DNA of 64,000 bases, from NCBI GenBank assembly GCA_037127915.1, contig JBAXXL010000020.1, forward strand, positions 1,822 to 65,821, written 5' to 3'. Under the pieces are notes generated by a model that did no database searches, was not told where the DNA came from, and was given only the letters and a program-made list of their open reading frames with translations. This stretch comes from a bacterium. Its GTDB lineage: Bacteria; Bacteroidota; Ignavibacteria; Kapaibacteriales; UBA2268. The stretch's first letter is position 1; each line of letters starts with the position of its first letter. Positions 1-52,362 of the stretch are shown here, one piece after another. The translations under genes and the position numbers were made by a program.

Positions 1-1026
1 ACTTTTCTTAAGGCTTGACCATTCAAACTTTATTTGGCTGTAACTACGAGTTATTCCAAAACCTGTTCCGGTAATAGTAACTTCATCTTCAACAAAGCCC
101 GAATTCGGTGTTATACTTTTAATTACGGGAACAATTATTTCACCCTTAATGCAACGAACCGATTGTCCGGATTCCTTATCTGGGCCAATTGAGAATAATT
201 CGGCATTATCGTAGGTTGCGGAAAGTCCTAAAACATACTTGCTTGAGTTCAACCACGAACCAAAAATACCAAATCCCCAGAATTCTCCTTTTTCATTCCT
301 ATTCCCCGCAGGTAGCCCTGAAAATCCGCTTTCATTAGTAGCACCTTCATTGGGTGTTACCCATAAGCCGTCGCCGACTTGGTAAGTACCTATACTTTTA
401 AGTTTGCCCCCGCCTTCACTCATACCGCCAAGAAATTCTTCTAAAGCATTGCTTTCCTGTTCACTAGGGATATGCCAACCTACAGGAGCTAAACCACGCG
501 GGTCTGTAACTGCATACCAATTGTAAAGTTTCCCATAAATTCCATCCATAGCCGGATCGTTATTATAGTAGCACCAAGCCCCTGTGGTTAATTTGCTCCA
601 TTCAATTGAATCAGTAACCTGAGGGATTGGATCTCCATTTCGATAATGATCAACATCAAGATTTTTGCACGACCAGATTTGATTTCCGATTGTTGTTTCG
701 GAACAATCATTTGAAATGAAAATGATACTGTCAATCGCAGCGATATTAAAATACCTTAGTGTGACCGGTAGATTGATTTTAATTTTTTTTACGCCGGTGA
801 GTTCAATTGACGAAATATTTGTGTTTAAGTATGAATAACTTGTATCATGTAAAAATACCTTCATAGTATAAAGAATGTCTGATTTTATAAAACTCATTTC
901 AATTAAATCTTCTATTCTGTATTCTTTCGAATTTCCATCTTCAAGATAAAACTTTATAGTCGGCTCAACTGCCTTGAGAGTTAAACTAACCATAAGAAAC
1001 ATCATTATAAATATAACTTTTTTCAT
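1..1026 (-). CDS. Secreted FISUMP-family protein (N-terminal family-specific domain, FISUMP domain, IPT/TIG). Partial, with the 3' end beyond the window start.
   Basis: Reverse-complement ATG at 1024-1026. Translation begins MKKVIFIMMFLMVSLTLKAVEPTIKFYLEDG, nearly identical to the N-termini of the three downstream paralogues. It contains GKLYNWYAV...GWHIPS...GGKLK...SVRCIKG motifs typical of the Fibrobacter succinogenes major paralogous domain, then a TIG-like IVPVIKSITP...GTGFG segment. Confidence 0.75.
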   Translation of the reverse strand, partial: MKKVIFIMMFLMVSLTLKAVEPTIKFYLEDGNSKEYRIEDLIEMSFIKSDILYTMKVFLHDTSYSYLNTNISSIELTGVKKIKINLPVTLRYFNIAAIDSIIFISNDCSETTIGNQIWSCKNLDVDHYRNGDPIPQVTDSIEWSKLTTGAWCYYNNDPAMDGIYGKLYNWYAVTDPRGLAPVGWHIPSEQESNALEEFLGGMSEGGGKLKSIGTYQVGDGLWVTPNEGATNESGFSGLPAGNRNEKGEFWGFGIFGSWLNSSKYVLGLSATYDNAELFSIGPDKESGQSVRCIKGEIIVPVIKSITPNSGFVEDEVTITGTGFGITRSYSQIKFEWSSLKKS

Positions 1027-1062
1027 ATTTAAAAACCTTAATTAACTATATATTCTTTTATA

Positions 1063-1093
1063 GATGGGCTCCACCTCCAAGGTGGAGTCCATC
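1063..1093 (-). terminator. Hairpin gatgggctccacc-tccaa-ggtggagtccatc downstream of the 1128-5195 gene
   Basis: Near-perfect 13-bp inverted repeat located after the stop codon of a minus-strand gene. No strong U-tract follows. Confidence 0.35.
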
Positions 1094-1127
1094 TTATCTC
1101 ACTACTTCACAAACTTTAAGAACTGTT

Positions 1128-4100
1128 TTAATCTTTAATACAACGAACGGCAAAACCACTATTTGTTGTATTGCCATATATGAATAATTTAGTGTTGCTA
1201 TAGTCCAAACAATAAGATGATAAATTAACTTCATGGTCTTTCTTAGTTAATCCCCACCAATAACCAAAGTAACCCTTGTATTGGAATACGCCATAGTAAT
1301 CACGTGTTCCACCGGGTAGTGCCGAAAATCCGGTTTCGTTTGTAGCACCTTTATTTGGATATTGCCACAGACCATTTCCGTTTCTGGATGTACCTGTACT
1401 TTTTAGTTTTCCGCCCGCCAAGTTCTCACCGCCAAGATAATTGGTGAGTATTGTCCATTCCTCATCGTTTGGTATATGCCAACCGGCAGGAGCTAATCCG
1501 CGCGAATCACTAACGGCATACTTATTGTATAGTTTGCCAAATTTACCGCCTTCCGCAAGGTCGTTTTTGTAGTAGCACCAGGCACCGGTTTTTAAATTTG
1601 ACCAAGCTAGGGCATCAGTAACTTGAGGAATTGTGTCGCCATTACGATAAGTAGAAACATCGAGATTTTTGCATGACCATTTTTGAGTTCCGATTGTGAC
1701 GTATTCGCAGTCGTCCGGTTTCAGAGGTTTAACAGTGAATTCAACTTTATCGCTCTTTATATCATTTACCGTAATACTTATATACCCTGTTTCAGCACCT
1801 GCGGGAACCTTCACTTTTACTTGGATATTACTCCAGCTTATATAATCGCTTTGCTCTGGTTTTATTGAATTAAATGATATATAATTAGCTCCTTGAGAAG
1901 AACCGAAATTCGCTCCATTTATCGTAATTTCATCGCCTATATATCCGTTATTCGGAATTATGCTATTAATCATAGGTACAATTGCATTCGCTTTTATACA
2001 GCGTATAGCAAATCCATTTTCCTTCGTATTTGAGTTGCGAATGAGTAGTGAATCGTAGTAGTCCATTGTTCTGCTCCAAGCATTGTTAGTGCTACTATCA
2101 GTTGAACACCACCATTTACAGTGATATTCTAATTTAAGGAAATCACTAATGTTTCCACGGTAGCCGCTTGGCAAAGCTGAAAAGCCGTATTCGTCTGTTG
2201 CTCTTCTATTTGTATTAGGCCAATGTTTTGTTCCGGCTTCTTTTAGTTTATAAATTGCCGCGCTATCACCGCCTGCATAATCAATAAGTTGTGTCCATTC
2301 CGGATCGCTTGGTATTTTCCATCCAGCAGGAGCCAAACCGCGTGGGTCGTTCACGGCATACCAATTATAAAGTTTACCATAAACTTTTCCATAATATGGA
2401 TCATTATTGTAGTAGCACCATGCACCTGTTTTTAAATTTTTCCATTCTGTGCTGTCTTTTACCTGTGGTATAGGATCGCCATTTCTGTAACGGCATACTT
2501 CTAGATTTTCTCCCATCCACACTTGGGTTCCAATTGTAAGTGGAGTGTACGAACTTCTACCACCGCAAGGGATAGTGTCAGGATTGTAATCCTTAACACA
2601 GCGTACCGAAAAACCATCATTTTGATAATATTTAATTCTATCCAATGAAGGTGAATAATAGTAAATAAGGCTACCATAAGCATTATCTGAACTCCACCAA
2701 TGAGCATAAGTACCAATTTCAGAGAATCTTAAATTTCCACTATAGTGACCACGTCCAGCGGCAGGTAAAGCCTTAAATCCAAATTCGTCAGTAGCTCCCG
2801 CGTTAGGACTTAACCAATGAGTAGTTCCAACTTCCTTTAGTTTTCCGCCAACTACATCCGCAGGACCAAAATAGTCCGCAAAGTAGGTCCACTCAGCATT
2901 ACTTGGCACGTGCCAACCTTCAGGAGCCAATCCGCGCGGATCGTTTACCGCATACCAGTTGTAAAGTTTTCCGAATATTTTACCATTTTCAGGATCGTTA
3001 TGACTATAGCACCATGCGCCTGTTTTTAAATTTTTCCATTTGACGCTATCCTTAACTTCCGGTATTATGTCTCCATTTCTATATCTGCATACATCAAGGT
3101 TTTCTCCCATCCATACAAGAGGTCCTATTTTGACGGAAGTATAGTATGCTCTTTCAGTACAAGGTATTAAAACTTCAAAATCTACTTCATTGCTCTGTCT
3201 TTCGCTTACAGTAACAGATACTTTTGCATATCCGGTTTCAATTTTATTCGGAACTCTAACTTTTATTTTCGAATTGCTCCAGCTTAAATAATTATTTGGC
3301 GGTAGTGTTAAGGAACTGAACGTAACGACGCTAGTACCTTGAACATCTCCAAAACCGGTACCTTCGAGTATTACTTCATCACCAATATATCCGGTAGCCG
3401 GATTAATTTTGTTGATTTTAGGAAATACAAATTCACCTTTGACGCAACGAACTGAAAAACCATATTCTTTACTATTGCTGTATCTATATATGCCCGGGTA
3501 ATAATAGCTCAGTCCTCTGAACCAAACATCTGCCGTATCGGTAGCAGTAGAACTCCACCAATAACCTTCTTTACCCAAACTGTAAAACGCACCTTGATTA
3601 CCGCGGTAGCTCCCTGGGAGAGCGGTAAAACCCGTTGCATTTGTAGCACCGGTATTAGGTTTACGCCAATGGTCAAATCCAACTTCTTTCAATTTGCCGC
3701 CTTCATTCGTTCCGCGGTATCCTGTTGAATCAACTAATGTATTGGACATACCAAGATGCTTTTCTAATGTTTTCCAATCTTCATCTTCAGGCACATGCCA
3801 ACCAACCGGTGCTAAGCCGCGAGGGTCGTTCACCGCATACCAATTGTAAAGTTTGCCGTAAATGTTTCCATTATTAGTATCGTTATTATAGTAACACCAA
3901 GCACCTGTTTTTAAATTTTTCCATTCTGTGGAGTCAGTAATCTGTGGAATGAGATCGCCATTTCGATAATAACAAACATCGAGATTTTCTCCCATCCATT
4001 CTTGTGTACCTATATTTAAAGTCGTGTATGAGCTTTTTTCGGTGCATGGCAGTAGAACTGTAAAATCTACTTCATTGCTCTTATTTCCATTTACGGTTGC

Positions 4101-5195
4101 GAAAACTTTCCCTGTTCTCGCGCCCTTGGGCACTTTTACTTTTATTTCAGTGTCGTTCCAGCTTGTATAATCGGTTGATAGTGGTTTTGTTGAGTTAAAT
4201 AAAATGATATTAGAACTGCGTGTTTTTCCGAAGCCGCTTCCGCTTAATGTTACTTCATCTCCCAAATTACCATATTCTGGAATTATACTATTTATGACAG
4301 GTACTATTGCTTCACCTTTTACGCAACGTATAGATAACCCGGATTCCATAGCTTTACCGGCTCGGGTTAGACTGCCGGTACTATAATTTACAGCACTGAA
4401 CCAAGAATTAGTTTTACCGTTGTCATTAGAACTCCACCAATAACCGTCGGAACTCATAAATAAGAAAGAGCCATCTTTTAATCTTAAACCTCCGGGAAGA
4501 GCCAGAAAACCGCTTTCGTTAGTAGCTCCAAAGTTGGGGCTTTGCCAATGTGCAGTTCCGGATTCCTTCAATTTGCCGCCGGCTTGCGGTTCGCCGCCGA
4601 GATAAGCAGTTAGAGTCTTCCATTCTTCATCACTTGGAATATGCCAACCGACAGGTGCCAAGCCGCGCGGGTCGTTTACAGCGTACCAATTGTATAGTTT
4701 ACCATAGGTTTTACCATACTCTGTGTCATTATTGTAATAGCACCAAGCACCTGTGGTTAATGTACTCCATTCTGCAGGGTCAACAACTTGAGGTAATAAA
4801 TCGCCATTTCGATAGTGTTCAACATCAAGATTTTTGCACATCCATGTTTGGGTGCCTATTGTAATTTCAGTACATGAATATACTATAAAAATAATGGAAT
4901 CAATTCTGTTGATATTAATTAATTCGGTTCCATCTGAAAATTTGAGAACTAATGTTGTCGAATCAGAGAAATTCATTGATTCAATTGCACGAATGTCGTA
5001 AGTTGTTTTTAATCCTGAAGAATAAATATACATCAGAAATGGCAATTCCGGCTGTATGAACTTCATATCCGCAATTTCTTCAATTTTATACTGTTTTGAG
5101 GAACCATCTTCAAGATAAAACTTTATAGTCGGTTCAACTGCCTTAAGAGTTAAACTAACTATAAACAACGCGATAATCAATAAAACTTTTTTCAT
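1128..5195 (-). CDS. Giant secreted protein with 5 FISUMP domains interleaved with 3 IPT/TIG-like domains (1355 aa)
   Basis: Signal peptide MKKVLLIIALFIVSLTLKA. The motif GTQ.WM..NLDV..YRNGD.IPQV.D...W..L.TGAWCYYNND...G..YGKLYNWYAV.DPRGLAP.GWH.P...EW..L...LGG...AGGKLK...WSS....SVRC.K recurs five times. IPT/TIG-like stretches read IVPVINSIIP..G..GDEVT..G.GFG. Confidence 0.85.
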   Translation of the reverse strand: MKKVLLIIALFIVSLTLKAVEPTIKFYLEDGSSKQYKIEEIADMKFIQPELPFLMYIYSSGLKTTYDIRAIESMNFSDSTTLVLKFSDGTELININRIDSIIFIVYSCTEITIGTQTWMCKNLDVEHYRNGDLLPQVVDPAEWSTLTTGAWCYYNNDTEYGKTYGKLYNWYAVNDPRGLAPVGWHIPSDEEWKTLTAYLGGEPQAGGKLKESGTAHWQSPNFGATNESGFLALPGGLRLKDGSFLFMSSDGYWWSSNDNGKTNSWFSAVNYSTGSLTRAGKAMESGLSIRCVKGEAIVPVINSIIPEYGNLGDEVTLSGSGFGKTRSSNIILFNSTKPLSTDYTSWNDTEIKVKVPKGARTGKVFATVNGNKSNEVDFTVLLPCTEKSSYTTLNIGTQEWMGENLDVCYYRNGDLIPQITDSTEWKNLKTGAWCYYNNDTNNGNIYGKLYNWYAVNDPRGLAPVGWHVPEDEDWKTLEKHLGMSNTLVDSTGYRGTNEGGKLKEVGFDHWRKPNTGATNATGFTALPGSYRGNQGAFYSLGKEGYWWSSTATDTADVWFRGLSYYYPGIYRYSNSKEYGFSVRCVKGEFVFPKINKINPATGYIGDEVILEGTGFGDVQGTSVVTFSSLTLPPNNYLSWSNSKIKVRVPNKIETGYAKVSVTVSERQSNEVDFEVLIPCTERAYYTSVKIGPLVWMGENLDVCRYRNGDIIPEVKDSVKWKNLKTGAWCYSHNDPENGKIFGKLYNWYAVNDPRGLAPEGWHVPSNAEWTYFADYFGPADVVGGKLKEVGTTHWLSPNAGATDEFGFKALPAAGRGHYSGNLRFSEIGTYAHWWSSDNAYGSLIYYYSPSLDRIKYYQNDGFSVRCVKDYNPDTIPCGGRSSYTPLTIGTQVWMGENLEVCRYRNGDPIPQVKDSTEWKNLKTGAWCYYNNDPYYGKVYGKLYNWYAVNDPRGLAPAGWKIPSDPEWTQLIDYAGGDSAAIYKLKEAGTKHWPNTNRRATDEYGFSALPSGYRGNISDFLKLEYHCKWWCSTDSSTNNAWSRTMDYYDSLLIRNSNTKENGFAIRCIKANAIVPMINSIIPNNGYIGDEITINGANFGSSQGANYISFNSIKPEQSDYISWSNIQVKVKVPAGAETGYISITVNDIKSDKVEFTVKPLKPDDCEYVTIGTQKWSCKNLDVSTYRNGDTIPQVTDALAWSNLKTGAWCYYKNDLAEGGKFGKLYNKYAVSDSRGLAPAGWHIPNDEEWTILTNYLGGENLAGGKLKSTGTSRNGNGLWQYPNKGATNETGFSALPGGTRDYYGVFQYKGYFGYWWGLTKKDHEVNLSSYCLDYSNTKLFIYGNTTNSGFAVRCIKD

Positions 5196-5237
5196 AAACT
5201 TAATTCCATATTTAATTAATAATCTTTATTCTTTTTA

Positions 5238-5270
5238 ACTCATCCGATAATTGGCAGTCATCGGATGAGT
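5238..5270. repeat. Palindromic intergenic repeat family C (actcatccgat..ggcagtcatcggatgagt), copy 1
   Basis: 15-bp stem inverted repeat preceded by the conserved leader ttaattaataatctttattctt. Further copies lie at 8091-8128 and 9249-9287, with a degenerate copy at 29481-29515. All copies are 3' of genes. Confidence 0.7.
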
Positions 5271-5279
5271 AGAACTTTT

Positions 5280-6158
5280 TTATTCTTCTACACATCGTAC
5301 CGATAAGCCGCTACACATTGCACTACACCCCCAAGGTTGATTAGCTTTGTCATAGCTCAAAGTCCAAGAGTAAACAAGTGAAACATTAGCCTTGTCCTGA
5401 GTCCACATAAAATTAGAAAATCCGAGTTCCGAAAATTTTGGATAACGAGCACCACCCGGAAGTGCAGTAAAACCGGATTCATTGGTTGCACCGGTATTCG
5501 GATATTGCCAATGGTTGGTACCGGCTTCTTTCAACTTGCCTCCGGCAACGGCTTCACCACCCAGTGAATTTAAAAGAATCGTCAGATCACTATTATGCGG
5601 CACACGCCAACCTGCGGGTGCTAAACCGCGCGGATCATTTACAGCATACCAATTATAGAGTTTTCCGTATATAGCACCCATCACGGGATCGTTGTTGTAA
5701 TAGCACCAGGCTCCGGTTTTAAGGTTTTGCCATTCCGCGGAATCGGTAACTTGCGGAATAATTTCGCCATTGCGGTAGTACTCAACATCAAGATTTTTTT
5801 TCATCCAAGTTTGCGGTCCAATTGTAATTTGATTATATGGATTACGAATAAAGGTTATACTGTCTATATCGCCGATATTGATATTTTCTACCGAAGATGA
5901 AAGATTTATTTTCAATGTGTTTAAATCGCTAAATTCCAATGTGCTTATGTTTTTTACATTATAGGAATTTTTTGCACCGTCTATAAAGACTTCCATCAGA
6001 TATGGTAAATTTGATTTAACAAAACTCATTTCAATAAAATCTTCCAGTCTATATTCTTTTGAATTTCCATCTTCAAGATAAAACTTAACAACCGGTTCAA
6101 CTCCTTTGAGAGTTAAACTAAGCATAAACAACGCGATAATCAATAACACTTTTTTCAT
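5280..6158 (-). CDS. Secreted single-domain FISUMP-family protein (292 aa)
   Basis: Signal peptide plus the shared N-terminal domain (VEPVVKFYLEDGNSKEYRLEDFIEMSF) and one FISUMP domain (IGPQTWMKKNLDV...YGKLYNWYAV...SVRCVEE). Confidence 0.85.
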   Translation of the reverse strand: MKKVLLIIALFMLSLTLKGVEPVVKFYLEDGNSKEYRLEDFIEMSFVKSNLPYLMEVFIDGAKNSYNVKNISTLEFSDLNTLKINLSSSVENINIGDIDSITFIRNPYNQITIGPQTWMKKNLDVEYYRNGEIIPQVTDSAEWQNLKTGAWCYYNNDPVMGAIYGKLYNWYAVNDPRGLAPAGWRVPHNSDLTILLNSLGGEAVAGGKLKEAGTNHWQYPNTGATNESGFTALPGGARYPKFSELGFSNFMWTQDKANVSLVYSWTLSYDKANQPWGCSAMCSGLSVRCVEE

Positions 6159-6199
6159 AACCTTAATTCCCTATTTAATTAATAATCTTTTTTTCTACT

Positions 6200-6245
6200 A
6201 ACCTTCCGAAGGTTCGAAACCTTCGGAAGGTTTCGAGACGTCTCT
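6200..6245. repeat. Palindromic repeat family B (aaccttccgaaggttcgaaaccttcggaaggtttcgagacgtctc), intergenic copy
   Basis: Tandem palindromes ccttccgaagg / ccttcggaagg plus gagacgtctc. A nearly identical 44-bp copy at 9443-9486 lies inside the CDS 9291-11114. Confidence 0.7.
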
Positions 6246-6305
6246 TCAACTTTATAACTTTAAGAACATTATGAACTTTAAAAACTTTAAACTTTACAAA
6301 CTCAT

Positions 6306-8057
6306 TTAATCCTTAATACAACGCACCGACAAGCAGGAACCTTTATTTTCACTCGATCGAGAGCAATTCGTTGACATGTTGTAAATATTTCTATTCCAAG
6401 CGACGTTTTCATCCAATTCAGTAGAAGTCCACCAATATCCATAAAAGTTTATCATTTGAAACGACATTTCAGAAAGTTTGCCACCCGGGAGTGCTAAAAA
6501 TCCACTTTCGTTAGTAGCACCGAAGTTTGGTGCTTTCCAAAGTCCGGTATTATCTTTCAAATTTCCTGTGCTTTTCAATTTACCGCCAGCTACAGTAGTA
6601 TCGCCAAGATAATCCGTTAGCTTAGTCCATTCTGCGTCGCTTGCCACATGCCAACCTTCGGGAGCTAATCCGCGAGGATCATTAACGGCGTACCAATTAT
6701 AGAGTTTGCCATAAAGTTCTTCATTTTCAACTTTAAAAGAATAATAGCACCAAGCACCGGTTGTTAAATTATTCAAGTCAGTCCATTTTTTTACCTGTTG
6801 TATTGTATCACCGTTGCGGTAGCAGTCCACATTAAGGTTGCGTGACATCCAAACTTGTGTTCCAATAATTATTGCTTCAAAATAATCGGGATCGGTTTGG
6901 GTGATAACGAAATTTACTAAATTGCTTAAAATACCCTCGACGCATACAGATACATACCCTGTTTTTGCATCTTGCGGAATAACTAATTTTATTTCAGTAT
7001 CGCTCCAAGATATATAATCGCTCTTATCAGCAGTTAAAGTTCCAAATGAAACATAACTGAATTTGCGTTCCGCTCCAAAACCGGTACCGGAAACTGTGAG
7101 TACCTTACCTACTTGAGATGAATTGGGGGATATAGATTTGATAGCGGGAATATTATAATCTTTTATACAACGCACCGAAAAACCACAAGTTTTTTTACCC
7201 ATACTTGTACCAAGCGCAGATTTATCGTAGGATAACACACGGATCCATATACTTTTAATTGTTTCTTGTTCGGAAGAAGACCAATAATTAGCGGTTAAAC
7301 CTATATTAGTGAATGAATCATACCTATAACCGCTAGGTACGCCGGAAAAATTAGTTTCATTTGTGGCACCAACGTTTGGGCTTTGCCATAAACCATCGCC
7401 TGTTTCAATGGTGCCGGTACTTTTTAGCATACCACCGGCTAAGGAATCGCCGCCCAGATTGTCAGGGATTGTTTTCCATTCTTCAATAATTGGAATGTGC
7501 CAGCCTTCGGGAGCTAAACCACGAGGATCGCTAACAGCATACCAGTTGTAAAGTTTTCCATAGATTGCTCCCATAGCGGGGTCGTTGTTATAATAGCACC
7601 ATGCACCCGTTTGCAGGTTAACCCATTCAGCGGAGTCAGTAACTTGCGGGATTGGGTCGCCGTTGCGGTAGGATTCGACATCAAGATTTTGTCCCATCCA
7701 AGTGAAGTTTCCTATGGGAATCTCATTAGCGGTTTTCGGAACAAAATTTATACTATCAATTTCGGAAATTAAAAAAAGAGAAGCATCATCTGTTTTCTGG
7801 ACTACTAATGTGTTGGAATTAAGGAACGTCAGAGAAGTGATATCCTTTGTATCTAAAGTATATTTAGTATTATAAGCATATACTTCCATCATATAAGGCA
7901 AATCGGACTCAATAAAATTCATTTCCTCTATGTCGTCAATTCTATATTGACTAAAATTTCCATCTTCAAGATAAAATTTAATTCCCAAATCTTCTGATTT
8001 GAGCGTAAAACTAATCACACACAACAAAATAATAAATAAAACATTTTTCATATTCAA
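6306..8057 (-). CDS. Secreted protein with two FISUMP domains and an IPT/TIG-like domain (583 aa)
   Basis: Signal peptide plus the shared N-terminal domain (LGIKFYLEDGNFSQYRIDDIEEMNF) and two FISUMP motif sets (YGKLYNWYAV.DPRGLAPEGWH) separated by IPAIKSISP..GTGFG. Confidence 0.85.
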   Translation of the reverse strand: MNMKNVLFIILLCVISFTLKSEDLGIKFYLEDGNFSQYRIDDIEEMNFIESDLPYMMEVYAYNTKYTLDTKDITSLTFLNSNTLVVQKTDDASLFLISEIDSINFVPKTANEIPIGNFTWMGQNLDVESYRNGDPIPQVTDSAEWVNLQTGAWCYYNNDPAMGAIYGKLYNWYAVSDPRGLAPEGWHIPIIEEWKTIPDNLGGDSLAGGMLKSTGTIETGDGLWQSPNVGATNETNFSGVPSGYRYDSFTNIGLTANYWSSSEQETIKSIWIRVLSYDKSALGTSMGKKTCGFSVRCIKDYNIPAIKSISPNSSQVGKVLTVSGTGFGAERKFSYVSFGTLTADKSDYISWSDTEIKLVIPQDAKTGYVSVCVEGILSNLVNFVITQTDPDYFEAIIIGTQVWMSRNLNVDCYRNGDTIQQVKKWTDLNNLTTGAWCYYSFKVENEELYGKLYNWYAVNDPRGLAPEGWHVASDAEWTKLTDYLGDTTVAGGKLKSTGNLKDNTGLWKAPNFGATNESGFLALPGGKLSEMSFQMINFYGYWWTSTELDENVAWNRNIYNMSTNCSRSSENKGSCLSVRCIKD

Positions 8058-8090
8058 ATATTCCTGATTAATTAATAATCTTTATTCTTA

Positions 8091-8128
8091 AACTCATCCG
8101 ATGACTGGCAGTCATCGGATGAGTAAAC
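8091..8128. repeat. Palindromic repeat family C, copy 2
   Basis: aactcatccgatgactggcagtcatcggatgagtaaac, with the same ttaattaataatctttattctt leader as the copy at 5211-5237. Confidence 0.7.
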
Positions 8129-8248
8129 TAGTAATTTTGTTTTCAAATCTCCGCGTCAAGAGGAACTATTGACGCGAGGAAACATGGATTCCCGCTTCCG
8201 CGGGAATGACAACTTCTTCTACTTTATAACTTTATAAACTTTAAGAAC

Positions 8249-8707
8249 TTACTTAACCAATATCATTTTTTTGGTTAAAACTTCGCTATTAAACCTTACT
8301 TCGTAGTAATATGTTCCGCTTTCGACTCTGTTGTTGTTTTTGTCTATGCAGTTCCATGGCAAAGAATTTTTCCCGATTTGACAATTGGTACATTCCAACT
8401 TTTGGATTTGATTGCCGCGATTATCGTAAATTATAACCTCTACATTGCCGATGGAAGAAATTTCAAACTCGATATTAGTTTGTTCCTGAAACGGATTAGG
8501 ATAATTACCCGTAACTGCTAAGCCGCTTAAAGATTGGTTTGGCTCGTTTACAGATGTAACATTCTCGAATTTAATCGTTTTGATTTTTGAAACCGCGATT
8601 TTTTCGATTTGATTATTTTTCAATTTAATAACCAATGTATCAGTTTGCGCATATACACTAACACTATAAGCAATTAGTATAACTAAAGCCGTTAATAATG
8701 ATTTCAT
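8249..8707 (-). CDS. Small secreted protein with a T9SS (Por) C-terminal sorting domain
   Basis: The likely start is the internal Met at 8705-8707 (MKSLLTALVILIAYSVSVYA signal peptide). The ORF track extends the ORF to 8758. The C-terminus reads NYPNPFQEQTNIEFEISS.GNVEVIIYDNRGNQI...GTYYYEVRF, a typical T9SS CTD. Confidence 0.6.
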   Translation of the reverse strand: MKSLLTALVILIAYSVSVYAQTDTLVIKLKNNQIEKIAVSKIKTIKFENVTSVNEPNQSLSGLAVTGNYPNPFQEQTNIEFEISSIGNVEVIIYDNRGNQIQKLECTNCQIGKNSLPWNCIDKNNNRVESGTYYYEVRFNSEVLTKKMILVK

Positions 8708-8750
8708 ACAATACTCCAAATAAAAATTAAATAAAACACTTTTTTCAAAT

Positions 8751-9206
8751 TTGTACACTTTACTTATGTATAGACAACTGAGAAGTCCATTTCTTTCTCA
8801 TTCATTAAATTAATTTTTTGTCATAATTGGGGGAAACGGCGAAAATGATTGATATTAATGGTTATAGGTGTTTTAAGAAAAGTGAAAATAATTTTGTCGA
8901 AAAGCATTACATCCCTAGCGGGATGAGAAAAAAGGAAAAAAGTGCCGTAGGCATGCAATATCGGTAGAAAAGGTGAAATATTGTTTTGGGAAGTCCCATC
9001 GGGACGAAATAGAATATTCTGAATTAGGATTCAAGGATTAAAAGATTGTAGGATGTATTATTCGAAGCGTTGTATAAAAAACGCATCGCGCTTTTGGCTA
9101 TTAACCACATTTTGTTTAATTTAAGATTATATGCCGTACCTTAAGGCACTTCTCGGTTACCTCTAATCCTATTTTCTACCAATATTGCATCCCTAGCGGG
9201 ATGAAA
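8751..9206. other. Conserved noncoding block set X, homologous to 13681-14215
   Basis: An approximately 120-bp near-identical block (ttgtacactttacttatgtatagacaactgagaagtccatttctttctcattcattaaattaattttttgtcataattggg...), the motif aaaagtgaaaataatttt, the hairpins catccctagcgggatg and gtcccatcgggac, and a block reading ttttctaccaatattgcatccctagcgggatga are all shared with the region upstream of 11116-13677. Confidence 0.6.
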
Positions 9207-9248
9207 TAAAAATTCCAACACATCCTAAGTTGCAGAACTGCATGTTAT

Positions 9249-9287
9249 TACTCATCCGATGACTGCCAGTCATCGGATGAGTTTAAG
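9249..9287. repeat. Palindromic repeat family C, copy 3
   Basis: tactcatccgatgactgccagtcatcggatgagtttaag, immediately 3' of the CDS 9291-11114. Confidence 0.7.
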
Positions 9288-9290
9288 AAT

Positions 9291-47774: not shown

Positions 47775-48539
47775 ATGAGACACTTAAAGTCAGGAAGAAA
47801 GCTCAATCGTACGAGAGCTCACAGAAAAGCGCTTTTACATAATTTAGCGACTCAGCTTTTTGAACATAAAAGAATTAGAACTACCGAAGCAAAAGCGAAG
47901 GAACTAAGACCTTTTGCAGAAAGCATTATTACAAGAGCAAAAAATGCTTATCTATCAGAAAAAGGCGGCACTTTACCTGAAGGTTTACTTATAGATTTAC
48001 ATGCAAGACGTGTTGTCGGCAAAGTTATCAAGAATAAACCTGTATTACAGGAATTGTTCGATGTTATTGCTCCTAAAGTTGCCGATCGTCCGGGCGGATA
48101 TACTAGAATAATCAAAACTAACTATCGTCGTGGTGATGGTGGTAGTAATGCCCTGATAGAATTAGTTGATTGGGCAGGTTCACAAGATGGACCGATGACA
48201 ATCAATCAGAAAAAGAAATTAGCAAGAAAAACTGTTGATACAGAAAAAACTCCTTTGAAAAAAGAAGCTAAAGCTGTAAAACCGGTAGCCGCAATGGTTG
48301 AAGAAAAGGTTGCTTTAGCAACACCAATTGAAGAAGTATCTGAAGTAGTAGTTGTAGATAACGAAATCGAAAATGTAACTGATGTTGAAAACATTCAAGC
48401 ACATGTACCAATGGTTGAAGCAGTAGCTGAAGTCATCGAGGATGCAGAAGTTGAACCAAATCAAGCAGAAGTTCCATCTTTAGAAATCGTTGCTGAAACT
48501 CCAGCTGTAGAAGATACTGACGAAAAACCAGTAGCTTAA
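47775..48539 (+). CDS. rplQ: 50S ribosomal protein L17 with an acidic Ala/Val/Glu-rich C-terminal extension of about 130 aa
   Basis: The N-terminal region MRHLKSGRKLNRT..HR.A is canonical L17. A low-complexity acidic tail follows. Confidence 0.9.
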   Translation: MRHLKSGRKLNRTRAHRKALLHNLATQLFEHKRIRTTEAKAKELRPFAESIITRAKNAYLSEKGGTLPEGLLIDLHARRVVGKVIKNKPVLQELFDVIAPKVADRPGGYTRIIKTNYRRGDGGSNALIELVDWAGSQDGPMTINQKKKLARKTVDTEKTPLKKEAKAVKPVAAMVEEKVALATPIEEVSEVVVVDNEIENVTDVENIQAHVPMVEAVAEVIEDAEVEPNQAEVPSLEIVAETPAVEDTDEKPVA

Positions 48540-48593: not shown

Positions 48594-49277
48594 ATGCTTC
48601 TACATTGCACAAATATAGAAAAATCATACAAAACAAAGGGTAATAACGTACTCCACGTTTTGAAAAATATCTCGATGGCTATCGCTGAATCGAGTTATAT
48701 TGCGTTGCAAGGAGCCAGTGGTGCCGGAAAAAGTACATTACTCCATATTCTAGGCGGATTGGATGCGCCGGATTCAGGAATTGTAAATTATAACGATGGC
48801 TCACAGGATTATGATCTATACAACCTTGGCGATAATGAATTAGCTAACTTCCGAAATCGCAATATAGGTTTTATATTCCAGTTCCACCATCTTTTGCCGG
48901 AGTTTTCCGCTTTAGAGAATGTGATGCTTCCAAAACTTATTGCCGGCGAAAGCCAAAAAAAAGCTCAAGCTGAAGCTTACGATCTTATGGAACTAACCGG
49001 AATTGCCGATAGAGGTCATCACAGACCCAATGAACTATCCGGCGGTGAACAACAACGTGTTGCAATAGCCCGCGCTTTAATCCAGCAACCAAAAATCCTG
49101 TTAGCCGATGAACCGACAGGAAATTTAGACGAAGCAAATACAATCAAATTCCTCGAATTACTAAGCAAACTCAGAATAGAATATAATCTGACCTGCTTAA
49201 TAGCAACCCATAGTTCATTAGTTGCTCAATATGCCGAAACCATAATCAATATGAAAGACGGCAAAATCATCGAATAG
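48594..49277 (+). CDS. ABC transporter ATP-binding protein (LolD/FtsE-like)
   Basis: Walker A GASGAGKST, ABC signature LSGGEQQRVAIARAL, Walker B LLADEPTGNLD. 227 aa. Confidence 0.85.
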   Translation: MLLHCTNIEKSYKTKGNNVLHVLKNISMAIAESSYIALQGASGAGKSTLLHILGGLDAPDSGIVNYNDGSQDYDLYNLGDNELANFRNRNIGFIFQFHHLLPEFSALENVMLPKLIAGESQKKAQAEAYDLMELTGIADRGHHRPNELSGGEQQRVAIARALIQQPKILLADEPTGNLDEANTIKFLELLSKLRIEYNLTCLIATHSSLVAQYAETIINMKDGKIIE

Positions 49278-49670
49278 CGATTTTAAATCGTTTCTCCCCC
49301 TTTTTCAGTACTAGGAAACTTTTATATTTATGCTTTTTCAAACATATTATCAAATATGATTGGAAAATTAGTGTATATTTCAAAATTTACAAATACTTGG
49401 AAGTTTCAACGAATTATTACAAACTTTATAAAATGAAGAATTACACAGAGTTGCACTGAGAAGACACAGAGTTACACAGAGAAAGAAACTCTGTGGTTCT
49501 CTGTGTAATTCCTCTGTGTGTCTCTGTGTAATATTTTTCATTTTTTAATAGGTCACCCAAATCAAAAATACTGACCTAATATAAATTGTGTTACGACGAC
49601 TAATTAAAAAAATGAGGAAAACAGGAAAGACGGCAAAATCATCGAATAGCGATTTTCAATCGTTTCTCAA
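49256..49670. mobile_element. MITE-like insertion or duplication of about 370 bp. It is bounded by 42-bp direct repeats that encode the overlapping 3' ends of lolD-like and PAP2 genes, and it contains a long imperfect CACAGAG-rich hairpin of about 115 bp at 49430-49545.
   Basis: The direct repeats are aagacggcaaaatcatcgaatagcgatttt(a/c)aatcgtttctc at 49256-49297 and 49629-49670. The internal arms (a)ttacacagag...ctctgtgtaat form an inverted repeat. No ORF lies inside. Confidence 0.55.
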
Positions 49671-50196
49671 ACAATTCCACAAGTATTAACCTTAGTATAA
49701 GAGCTATACAGGTTCCGACCATGGCGCCTGCTATAACGTCTGCCGGATAATGAACGCCGACGACAATCCGCGAAAGCGCAATCAGAGTAGCCGTCACAAA
49801 GTATACCCAAGGATTTTTCTTATAGAAGAACGATAAGACAAACGCGGCGGCGAAATTATTAGCCGCATGCGATGACGGGAAAGATTTACCCGGTCCACAA
49901 CTCACCAAAAGATTAATATGTTCTAAAGTTTGGCAAGGCCGCATTCTTCCAACAAGTTCTTTAATAACATGAGATGTAATCTGATCTGACAAGAGAATAG
50001 CCACAATCAAAGTAGCAAAAACGATTCTACCACGCTTGCCATCGAAGAATAATAACCACAAAGCAGAGAAAAGATACAGAATACTCCAGTTACTGGATTC
50101 AGTAAGCAGAGTAAAAAACTTACCGGTGACAGGGTTTGCCAATGTTACATTGACAAAATAAAACAGTTGAGTGTCTAAATTTAATAAAAAATCCAT
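49639..50196 (-). CDS. PAP2-superfamily phosphatase (undecaprenyl-diphosphatase / PgpB-like)
   Basis: PAP2 motifs KELVGRMRP (KX6RP), PSSHA (PSGH), and SRIVVGVHYPADV (SRX5HX3D). Several TM helices. Confidence 0.8.
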   Translation of the reverse strand: MDFLLNLDTQLFYFVNVTLANPVTGKFFTLLTESSNWSILYLFSALWLLFFDGKRGRIVFATLIVAILLSDQITSHVIKELVGRMRPCQTLEHINLLVSCGPGKSFPSSHAANNFAAAFVLSFFYKKNPWVYFVTATLIALSRIVVGVHYPADVIAGAMVGTCIALILRLILVELFEKRLKIAIR

Positions 50197-51002: not shown

Positions 51003-51035
51003 AAAAAAACACTCAACCCAATGCTAAAATATGTA

Positions 51036-51066
51036 GATGTGCCACACTTTGAAAGTGTGGCACATC
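51036..51066. terminator. Bidirectional hairpin terminator between convergent genes
   Basis: Perfect palindrome gatgtgccacact-ttgaa-agtgtggcacatc followed by ttagttatttg. Confidence 0.65.
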
Positions 51067-51077
51067 TTAGTTATTTG

Positions 51078-51722
51078 TTAATGTTTTTTAGAGTGCCTGT
51101 ATTTCTCTTGGATTTGTTTATGCAATGGATTAACAATTCTTTCCTCGAATAGTTTAAGTTGCTTTTTGTTTTCTGCAGAACTTAATGAAAAGTTAATTTC
51201 TTCGTCATTTTCTCGGGATTTATCCTTTGGATTAATGATAAGGTAAAAACCAATGGCTGATTGATTCTTTCTTGGAGTTTCAACTACTACAGTATATAAT
51301 ACCCTTTGTTTATCAGAGTAGTAGAAAAACATTGGAGCCATATACACGTTTTTATCATATTCTGAATTACCAAAAATAGGATCATCTATCAGTGGATTCA
51401 ATTCCGGATGAAGTTCTTTGAATTTCACAATTTCAGATAATAATTCTAATTTACTTACTTCAAACTTATAATATTCGATACTACTATATGAAATATGAGT
51501 AAAATTTGTTACAAATTTTACAAAAAAATATAAAAATATTATGATTACTAAAACAAGAATTATAATTTTATATTTTTTCTTAATCATTGTTTTTGATTTT
51601 CTTGGCAAATAGATTTTACCATTTCGATATAGTTGGAATTGCTCATTCCGATTAATGTCGTCTCCGTTCAATGAAGGCGAACCTTCTTGACTATCAAAAT
51701 TCTTGATTTTCGATTTTTTCAT
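51078..51722 (-). CDS. Hypothetical membrane-anchored protein (214 aa)
   Basis: Lys-rich N-terminus followed by a single TM helix (IIILVLVIIIFLYFFV). No recognised domain. Confidence 0.45.
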   Translation of the reverse strand: MKKSKIKNFDSQEGSPSLNGDDINRNEQFQLYRNGKIYLPRKSKTMIKKKYKIIILVLVIIIFLYFFVKFVTNFTHISYSSIEYYKFEVSKLELLSEIVKFKELHPELNPLIDDPIFGNSEYDKNVYMAPMFFYYSDKQRVLYTVVVETPRKNQSAIGFYLIINPKDKSRENDEEINFSLSSAENKKQLKLFEERIVNPLHKQIQEKYRHSKKH

Positions 51723-51811
51723 TCTTTATCTCACAAATTTGAGAAACTCAACAGAATTCTTATTCTAAATTAGGTAAAACATTTTTATTATCCAAATAAC
51801 CATGTTTATTT

Positions 51812-52040
51812 CACCCTTTCAGGGTTTGTTAGTCGTAAAACAATTTCCTTGCTACAAAAATTGCACCCGTTCCGGGTTGAAGAGCCGATTTCAGCATCTC
51901 AGGGTTTGTTAGTCGTAAAACAATTTCCTTGCTACAAAAATACCACCCGTTCCGGGTTAAAGAGCAGATTTAACCCTTTCAGGGTTTATTTGCCGCATAA
52001 AACAATCTCATTTTTCTATTCACGTTCAATCCTTTCAGGA
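51812..52040. repeat. Tandem direct repeat of about 75 bp x2, plus two degenerate units
   Basis: The unit c(c/t)ttcagggtttgttagtcgtaaaacaatttccttgctacaaaaat.ccacccgttccgggtt.aagagc.gatt occurs at 51813-51895 and 51896-51973. cctttcagg seeds recur at 51975 and 52031. Confidence 0.7.
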
Positions 52041-52287
52041 TTGGCGAAATCAATTACGAATTTCAAATTACGAATTACGAATGCGGACAGGTAACGAGGG
52101 TCCATACAAAAGAAGACACACGCAGTGCGTCTCCGCGTCTTTGCGGTGAATTCTTCTTTCTTTTTGCATCTCGACTTCGCTCGATGACCTACCTGTTCTT
52201 CCTATACCCTATACCCAAAACCCTATACCCATTTTGGAGGATGGATTACCGATTCGCGGAAAAGAAGACGTAGTATAAATGTATCAA

Positions 52288-52362
52288 GGAGATTCCGGCT
52301 CGGAGGCCGGAATGACGGATTTTTTTTGGGAGATTTCGGCTCGGAGGCTGGAATGACGAAAG
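52288..52362. repeat. Duplicated hairpin motif gagatt(c/t)cggctcggaggc(c/t)ggaatgacg, 2 copies, the first followed by T8
   Basis: attccggc-tcggag-gccggaat has an 8-bp stem. It lies 3' of the minus-strand gene 52365-54044 and reads as a plus-strand terminator. Confidence 0.5.

Follow-up and report, generated by a model that had tools for sequence, protein, structure and literature searches.

How a pair of convergent genes came to be parted by noncoding DNA that is bounded on both sides by copies of the genes' own shared end is the question raised by a locus in a genome of the Kapaibacteriales (Bacteroidota; Ignavibacteria), of which we analyzed a stretch of 64 kb (contig JBAXXL010000020.1 of assembly GCA_037127915.1), hereafter called the window. 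In it, a gene for a LolD-like ABC transporter ATPase faces a gene for a PAP2-family phosphatase, and between the two lies an AT-rich segment with a hairpin built of short repeated heptamers. Comparison with related genomes points to a young insertion, accompanied by a target duplication of 44 nucleotides (nt). The parts of the locus, including those taken from the list of open reading frames (ORFs), are as follows.

48594 to 49277, plus strand: lolD-like ABC transporter ATPase gene, 227 amino acids (aa) (ORF list; Pfam ABC_tran; protein ending in KDGKIIE)
49253 to 49296, no strand: left copy of the 44-nt target duplication, with A at 49290; the alignment with relatives stops exactly at 49296
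49297 to 49429, no strand: AT-rich portion of the insert to the left of the hairpin, about 133 nt, matching none of the collections searched
49430 to 49545, no strand: heptamer-array hairpin, delimited by fold and motif, with a stem that reaches outward to about 49424 to 49553
49546 to 49624, no strand: AT-rich portion of the insert to the right of the hairpin, 79 nt, matching none of the collections searched
49625 to 49668, no strand: right copy of the 44-nt target duplication, with C at 49662 as in the relative L004; the relatives' alignment starts exactly at 49625
49639 to 50196, minus strand: PAP2-family phosphatase gene, 185 aa (ORF list; Pfam PAP2; protein ending in EKRLKIAIR)

The direct repeat, GAAAGACGGCAAAATCATCGAATAGCGATTTT[A/C]AATCGTTTCTC, was delimited with a repeat finder and by base-by-base comparison. 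Its two copies (49253 to 49296 and 49625 to 49668) have a period of 372 nt and a single mismatch, A at 49290 versus C at 49662, and they enclose 328 nt (49297 to 49624). An earlier reading of the letters alone (the sequence-only reading) had noticed a repeat at both ends of the segment, and the repeat is indeed present, at a length of 44 rather than the 42 bp given to it; the insertion size of about 370 bp that it proposed has to be revised to the 328 nt that separate the copies. It was right that the left copy supplies the stop of the lolD-like gene, whose ORF ends inside that copy with its final 8 codons and stop, and that the right copy supplies the C terminus of the PAP2 protein, whose minus-strand ORF likewise ends there with its final 9 codons and stop. 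The top NCBIfam model for the ATPase is LolD, with a score of 262 bits that falls under the cut-off of 307.75, and we therefore use only the wording LolD-like; the PAP2 protein has weak similarity, far under the cut-offs, to the NCBIfam models of undecaprenyl-diphosphatases. The window's allele is 100% identical across the region on two independent ENA assemblies (contigs encoding the exact PAP2 and ABC proteins) and is thus not an assembly artifact.

Relatives were collected by searching with the PAP2 protein, which gave a graded series belonging, where named, to Kapaibacteriota or Ignavibacteria. On all six contigs of four related species (L004, L005/L006, L009/L010, and L013, with PAP2 identities of 95, 89, 85, and 81%), the site is empty: there is a single 44-mer, of which the left neighbor matches the window's left flank and the right neighbor matches the window's right flank. 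The BLAST break points are exactly 49296 and 49625, and the 44 nt are common to both alignments. On the same six contigs the lolD-like/ABC and PAP2 genes overlap tail to tail by 11 nt, which bears out the ancestral overlap that the sequence-only reading had supposed. As read from these alignments, the lineage of the window has gained 328 nt of AT-rich DNA plus a 44-nt target duplication, so that both genes kept complete 3′ ends; the earlier suggestion of an insertion with an unusually long target duplication, which had called for a check of the syntenic locus, is upheld by the empty sites. Judged by divergence, the insertion took place long after the lineages of the window and of L004, the nearest empty-site relative, had parted, because a single one of the 44 positions distinguishes the repeat copies (about 33 of these positions being noncoding in one copy or the other), while the window and L004, about 91% identical in DNA, differ at 20 to 28% of third codon positions (lolD-like gene, 65 of 228; PAP2 gene, 37 of 186). 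The mismatched position itself varies among the relatives, being C in L004, A in L005 and L009, and G in L013, so that by itself it does not reveal whether a base mutated later or one of the copies is of foreign origin. The locus provides a rare clean filled-versus-empty pair for a small hairpin element, in which the insertion hit overlapping gene ends and survived only through unusually long target copying.

What was gained resembles ordinary spacer DNA except in its middle. The insert has a G+C content of 27 to 32%, comparable to that of other intergenic DNA of this genome, and its termini, CCCCTTTTTCAG... and ...GAGGAAAACAG, are not reverse complements of each other and include no terminal inverted repeats. 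The segment had been described as a palindromic insertion, which holds for its central part only (about 115 nt, or 115 to 130 nt with the extended stem); the insert as a whole is not palindromic, and its flanks fold locally. It had also been described as devoid of ORFs, which is correct save for a 53-aa frame on the minus strand (49380 to 49541) that merely traverses the hairpin. BLAST searches with the insert flanks against the window and 159 fetched loci yielded only chance 12- to 18-mers, the insert had no matches in a phage collection or a plasmid collection, and an insert flank was absent from 2.9 million viral contigs. A second copy of the 328-nt unit was sought without success in about 73 kb of this genome (the 64 kb of the window plus a further 8.9 kb) and in the relatives' loci, and the further 8.9 kb holds neither a second hairpin nor a sibling of the insert. 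Scanning Joint Genome Institute metagenomes, a collection in which the window's species is not represented, with a 19-mer from the hairpin base gave 8 matches in coding DNA that are put down to chance, together with a single degenerate hairpin. No recombinase gene or integrase remnant is present in the insert or the surrounding genes. The 328-nt unit was considered as a miniature inverted-repeat transposable element (MITE) and rejected as such, given its want of terminal inverted repeats and its 44-nt duplication; in about 73 kb no second copy turned up either. Thus, of the proposal that the insert is MITE-like or a nonautonomous element, the first half fails for the 328-nt unit, and the second survives for the hairpin, which belongs to a repeated, nonautonomous-looking family.

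The hairpin consists of two mirrored arrays. Its left arm (49441 to 49481) opens with TTA at 49441 to 49443 and has CACAGAG at 49444, 49465, and 49475 and CACTGAG at 49454; a 7-nt loop, AAAGAAA (49482 to 49488), follows; and the right arm (49489 to 49531) has CTCTGTG at 49489, 49499, 49512, and 49522 and closes with TAA at 49529 to 49531. The heptamers thus recur with periods of 10, 11, and 10 nt on the left and 10, 13, and 10 nt on the right. The minimum free energy is −56.9 kcal/mol for the plus strand and −51.3 kcal/mol for the minus strand (z of about −8), and none of 200 shuffled sequences folds as well, so that the hairpin of CACAGAG and CTCTGTG repeats proposed from the sequence is borne out by the folding run, with four heptamers in each arm. 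Within the 64-kb window the heptamer pattern is unique, with 0 chance matches expected. With regard to the small RNA that, according to the sequence-only reading, the insert might encode, an Rfam scan gave 0 families at the gathering threshold, and a permissive scan returned generic hairpin-like microRNA matches only, at less than 30 bits versus thresholds of 51 to 211. A terminator scan reports only the apical 7-bp stem, without a U-run; each strand has T-rich runs beyond the full hairpin, some of which pair in the extended stem.

Hairpins of this architecture are widespread. With the pattern CACAGAG-N3-CACAGAG...CTCTGTG-N3-CTCTGTG, a search of species-representative genomes recovered at least 119 stretches across many phyla, the matches listed including Bacteroidales, Cytophagales, Chloroflexota, Verrucomicrobiota, Acidobacteriota, Planctomycetota, Beggiatoaceae, Betaproteobacteria, and Methanosarcinales. 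Several genomes hold many copies (among loci L014 to L132, examples are L017, 184 to 233; L025, 3475 to 3522; and L044, 4498 to 4556). As a working definition, we took at least two CACAGAG-type heptamers per arm, mirrored by CTCTGTG, with a period of about 10 nt (8 to 13) and a framing by TTA...TAA or (T)CAC...GTG(A). The architecture was measured on 123 hairpins with 548 heptamer intervals, of which 70% are 10 nt; the arms have 2 to 4 heptamers (mode, 4; one case of 5), the median loop is 17 nt, compared with 7 nt in the window, and TTA...TAA is the commonest framing, followed by CAC...GTG. The hairpin of the window, with its four-plus-four heptamer arrays, its periods, its TTA...TAA framing, and its intergenic position between convergent genes, belongs to this family. 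The spacers between heptamers are complementary between arms at 41% of positions versus 25% expected by chance; it is the heptamer, rather than the pairing, that is conserved, which favors recognition of phased sites on DNA over a conserved RNA structure. The hairpins are mostly located after genes, with 26 sites in convergent, 47 in tandem, and 10 in divergent contexts. The hairpin type is nearly absent from viral contigs (1 match in 2.9 million), clustering of the ORFs around family hairpins revealed no recurrent neighboring transposase or recombinase, and we found no description of heptamer hairpins in open-access papers and bioRxiv. One locus of Candidatus Parabeggiatoa (L116, 890 to 1190) consists of a tandem array of a 161-nt unit with one complete heptamer hairpin in each unit.

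The proteins that did stand out in this clustering are those of the GxxExxY family (TIGR04256/PF13366, PDDEXK_3). In 840 kb of hairpin loci, all four GxxExxY genes have a hairpin no more than about 250 nt away, and in one of these loci (L062, 7282 to 7878) the gene is enclosed by a CACAGAG array on one side and a CTCTGTG array on the other. Among 12 independently sampled GxxExxY genes, 10 have heptamer arms, namely, CACAGAG arrays that surround or adjoin the gene in 6 cases and the lineage-specific variants CACAAAG, CGCAGAG, and CGCGAAG in 4. The sampled loci are as follows.

L146, 1945 to 2414, Mangrovibacterium: CACAGAG array on one side of the GxxExxY gene and CTCTGTG array on the other
L147, 982 to 1458, Methylococcaceae metagenome-assembled genome: CACAGAG array on one side of the GxxExxY gene and CTCTGTG array on the other
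L150, 1957 to 2412, Salegentibacter: CACAGAG array on one side of the GxxExxY gene and CTCTGTG array on the other
L153, about 640 to 1110, Bacteroides finegoldii: CACAGAG array on one side of the GxxExxY gene and CTCTGTG array on the other
L154, about 630 to 1110, Bernardetia: CACAGAG array on one side of the GxxExxY gene and CTCTGTG array on the other
L143, Spirosomataceae: complete hairpin after the GxxExxY gene
L151, Bacteroidales metagenome-assembled genome, and L152, viral contig: arms of CACAAAG/CTTTGTG around the GxxExxY gene
L155, Gemmatirosa: CGCAGAG hairpins on either side of the GxxExxY gene
L156, Sphingomonas: CGCGAAG upstream of the GxxExxY gene only
L157, Treponema: plain inverted repeat at the GxxExxY gene
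L158, Fusobacteria: repeat of another kind at the GxxExxY gene

At these loci the heptamers are confined to the vicinity of the gene, and where the arms stand 400 to 550 nt apart, the GxxExxY gene is the sole cargo. The genes are wedged between operon genes, in the same orientation as the upstream gene in 10 of the 10 annotated cases. The catalytic D...ExK and the glutamate of the GxxExxY motif are invariant in both protein alignments. No solved structure matching GxxExxY proteins by sequence was found; a structure model of moderate confidence (predicted local distance difference test, 74.7) gave fold matches that are weak (E > 0.1) but all to PD-(D/E)XK nucleases, and because of this weakness no specific functional analog can be named. 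The family is large, with at least 8,000 candidates in one search, and is listed with function unknown in a survey of the superfamily (PMC3424549); no paper linking it to heptamer repeats was found among open-access and bioRxiv texts. Two apparent long duplications at the sampled loci were rejected: the hairpins around the gene in L155 have different loops and are two separate hairpins rather than a duplicated one, and the repeat flanking L158 has a third occurrence, which makes it a repeat element and not a target duplication.

The hairpin of the window is most aptly seen as the arms of a GxxExxY cassette without the gene. A further-reaching version of this idea we regard as doubtful. In it, an undescribed selfish cassette, found across phyla and with a 125-aa GxxExxY PD-(D/E)XK nuclease as its only gene, would have terminal inverted arrays of which the heptamer hairpin is the solo form; the window would then display a fresh integration product, and the 44-nt duplication, bounded by inverted half-sites (see below), would report the geometry of the integration complex. 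One hairpin arm spans 41 to 43 nt, which is near the 44-bp stagger. The possibility that the insert flanks are a decayed GxxExxY ORF was considered and rejected, as the sequence holds no trace of one. If the cassette reading is true, it parallels the REPIN-RAYT arrangement with a different enzyme, and a specific DNA partner in the form of phased CACAGAG-type heptamers would make the GxxExxY family directly testable at the bench; the repeat family, which spans many bacterial phyla and some archaea, offers a clue to these uncharacterized proteins. In L146, two 23S_rRNA_IVP (PF05635) genes (765 to 1142 and 3600 to 3959) are wedged into the same ABC transporter operon as the GxxExxY gene, each flanked by inverted arrays of short motifs (GTCTCA/GTCACA runs and CTTCAAG/CTTGAAG), which suggests that the gene-in-loop layout is common to more than one small selfish gene family.

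As to how the DNA entered the locus, the descriptive steps, namely, the ancestral overlap, the gain, and the duplication, are near certain. In the ancestor the convergent lolD-like and PAP2 genes shared 11 nt. Under the account we favor, two single-strand nicks, one per strand and 44 bp apart, would have been made at inverted half-sites, 5′-T^GAAAGACG on the top strand and 5′-T^GAGAAACG on the bottom strand; and the insert would have been joined in and the 44-nt gaps filled, yielding the target duplication. A GxxExxY-type nuclease acting in trans may be proposed for the enzyme, as a candidate and not as a finding. In favor of such nicks, the duplication begins and ends at inverted 8-mers (GARARACG half-sites) that match at 6 of 8 positions. 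To our knowledge, duplications this long are outside the repertoire of bacterial insertion sequences, which points to an unusual integration geometry or to repair-mediated capture. The whole account, a young insertion by enzyme-made nicks 44 bp apart and fill-in, we hold tentatively, at slightly less than an even chance, and the nicking step itself is perhaps a shade less probable than that. Under every mechanism, selection must have filtered the outcome, because without a duplication spanning the 11-nt overlap one gene would lose its end.

Several observations weigh against this account. The half-site symmetry was seen post hoc, with a rough P of about 0.01 before allowing for the several features inspected. 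The 44-mer folds end to end with an energy no better than that of shuffled sequences, and it was accordingly rejected as a significant palindrome. We know of no enzyme that makes a 44-bp stagger in bacterial transposition. The insert runs 133 and 79 nt past the hairpin, with ends that are not inverted repeats, and is single copy in the 73 kb available, so that a defined mobile unit is not established. When 95 hairpins were compared with a shifted-position control, a long flanking duplication was found only in the window and in one tandem array, and direct repeats of at least 11 nt outside the arms are absent from 14 of 16 GxxExxY cassettes. No GxxExxY gene is present in about 73 kb of the window's genome. 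In Anaerolineales bacterium HSG24 the heptamer hairpin is a passenger in a conventional MITE of 125 to 173 nt with 7- to 9-bp duplications (e.g., GTTTAATA, TTCCCAAAC, and CCGATGAC) and outer inverted repeats TACCCGACA...TGTCGGGTA (loci L018, L032, L040, L051, L054 to L056, L077, L079, L083, L109, and L117). Long flanking duplications as a hallmark of the hairpin family were therefore rejected over the 95 hairpins and 16 cassettes, the apparent exceptions having dissolved, and since other family members have none, the 44-nt duplication is specific to the event in the window.

The most serious rival, which we nevertheless consider unlikely, is capture during repair or replication: a fork would have stalled or a break occurred in the overlap, about 328 nt would have been copied from an ectopic, hairpin-bearing intergenic locus, and synthesis would have resumed 44 nt behind the point of departure, whether by template switching or by homology-facilitated illegitimate recombination after DNA uptake, with selection retaining an event that preserved both gene ends. 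Long palindromes stall replication, and an insert that lacks inverted termini, resembles ordinary intergenic DNA of 27 to 32% GC, and is single copy in all the sequence searched is what such copying would leave; the family hairpins elsewhere, without long duplications, are equally in line with it. A bias of survivorship toward long duplications would also be expected, as an insertion without at least 11 nt of duplication would truncate one gene. This explanation has to contend, however, with the failure to find a donor locus in the sequence searched, with the lack of visible microhomology at either junction, with the bounding of the duplication by inverted 8-mers, which would not be expected of break points placed at random, and with about 8 kb of synteny with the relatives, in which the coding DNA contains no other such event.

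Site-specific recombination is, in our judgment, distinctly less probable than capture. Here the 44-mer would be the core of an attachment (att) site at which a 372-bp circle was integrated by a tyrosine or serine recombinase in trans, or at which a larger element was later deleted to its ends, and the element would have brought its own copy of the target and so restored both gene ends, as in islands that integrate at gene 3′ ends. Direct repeats of tens of nucleotides that rebuild a gene end typify integrase-mediated insertion; the left copy could be element derived and the right copy, which at the single A/C mismatch matches L004, host derived, and the AT-rich flanks are like att arms. Yet neither the insert nor the surrounding genes hold an integrase gene or a remnant of one, the site is unoccupied on 6 of 6 of the relatives' contigs (a small sample) and hence shows no recurrent use, the hairpin family is otherwise without association with recombinase genes, and 372 bp is far smaller than any integrative element known to us. 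A local tandem duplication without foreign DNA would formally describe the locus as 1.12 copies of a 372-nt unit, but the 328 nt resemble neither flank nor any relative's locus; together with an assembly artifact, against which the identical allele in two independent assemblies speaks, it has practically no probability, being excluded by the empty-site alignments and those two assemblies.

The insertion that we favor, made at staggered nicks, and the hairpin it carries can be set beside several known systems. Like MITEs (e.g., Correia and RUP), the element is small, noncoding, and intergenic and has a long hairpin, and the hairpin arms relate to the arrays flanking the GxxExxY cassette as a MITE does to its parent element. 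It differs from them in that the 328-nt unit has no terminal inverted repeats, in the duplication of 44 nt versus 2 to 10 nt, in the lack of a second copy in about 73 kb, and in that the putative parent gene encodes a 125-aa PD-(D/E)XK nuclease and no known transposase. Repetitive extragenic palindromic (REP) sequences, REPINs, and their REP-associated tyrosine transposases (RAYT, or TnpA-REP) share with the hairpin family the intergenic palindromic repeats, the bias to gene 3′ ends, a high copy number in certain lineages, and a lone gene of a small nuclease-type protein with these repeats on either side; however, the RAYT is an HUH Y1 enzyme and each REP is a small palindrome with GTAG, whereas here we see a PD-(D/E)XK protein and direct heptamer arrays, mostly of four or fewer. 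Integrative elements of tyrosine recombinases likewise have direct repeats of tens of nucleotides that flank the insert and rebuild gene ends, in contrast to the absence of a recombinase, the 372 bp including one repeat, and the lack of reuse of the site in relatives at our locus. In Cas1-type integration by CRISPR systems and casposons, distant attacks on opposite strands are followed by fill-in, with duplication of 14 to 15 bp in casposons and of the whole repeat in CRISPR; the likeness is in outcome only, and there are no Cas1 or CRISPR features at the window locus. The intervening sequences of 23S rRNA (23S_rRNA_IVP) and free-standing homing endonuclease genes also feature a small selfish ORF in the loop of a long inverted repeat, between host genes and in sense orientation, unlike the copy in the window, which lacks an ORF and lies outside rRNA genes; GxxExxY proteins are not known to home.

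At present the two genes no longer overlap, and the very stable hairpin separates the two convergent transcription units. By analogy with REP-like elements, and given the bias of the family to gene 3′ ends, it probably serves as a two-way transcription barrier or a stabilizer of 3′ ends; the terminator scan gave no clear U-tract signature.

The surrounding genes are ribosomal, ABC, PAP2, SIMPL, and Big_5 genes. That for ribosomal protein L17 (window 47775 to 48539) encodes 254 aa with an acidic Glu/Val/Ala-rich C-terminal extension of about 130 residues, and the lengths in relatives are similar (247 to 261 aa). A second indel relative to L005 lies at 51010 to 52343, where about 1.3 kb of the window correspond to about 315 nt in L005; no long duplication flanks it, and it includes a 214-aa ORF (51078 to 51722, minus strand) with no Pfam hit on record. 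Just past the SIMPL gene, at 51035 to 51067, is a perfect 16-bp palindrome, AGATGTGCCACACTTT/AAAGTGTGGCACATCT, with the look of a terminator; at 51808 to 52047 there are 80-nt tandem units, each with a small palindrome, ACCCTTTCAGGGT, of which the exact motif is confined within the window to these positions and to which palindromes in the L005 spacer are similar; and at 52288 to 52358 lies a direct repeat with a 41-nt period and CCGGCTCGGAGGCCGG hairpins. Toward the other end of the window (1128 to 5195), and in L159, which covers window 1 to 15195 plus 8.9 kb past the left edge, we observed a run of very large paralogous genes (581 to 1355 aa) with Fib_succ_major and TIG repeats, after which come proteins with the Por_Secre_tail domain of type IX secretion.

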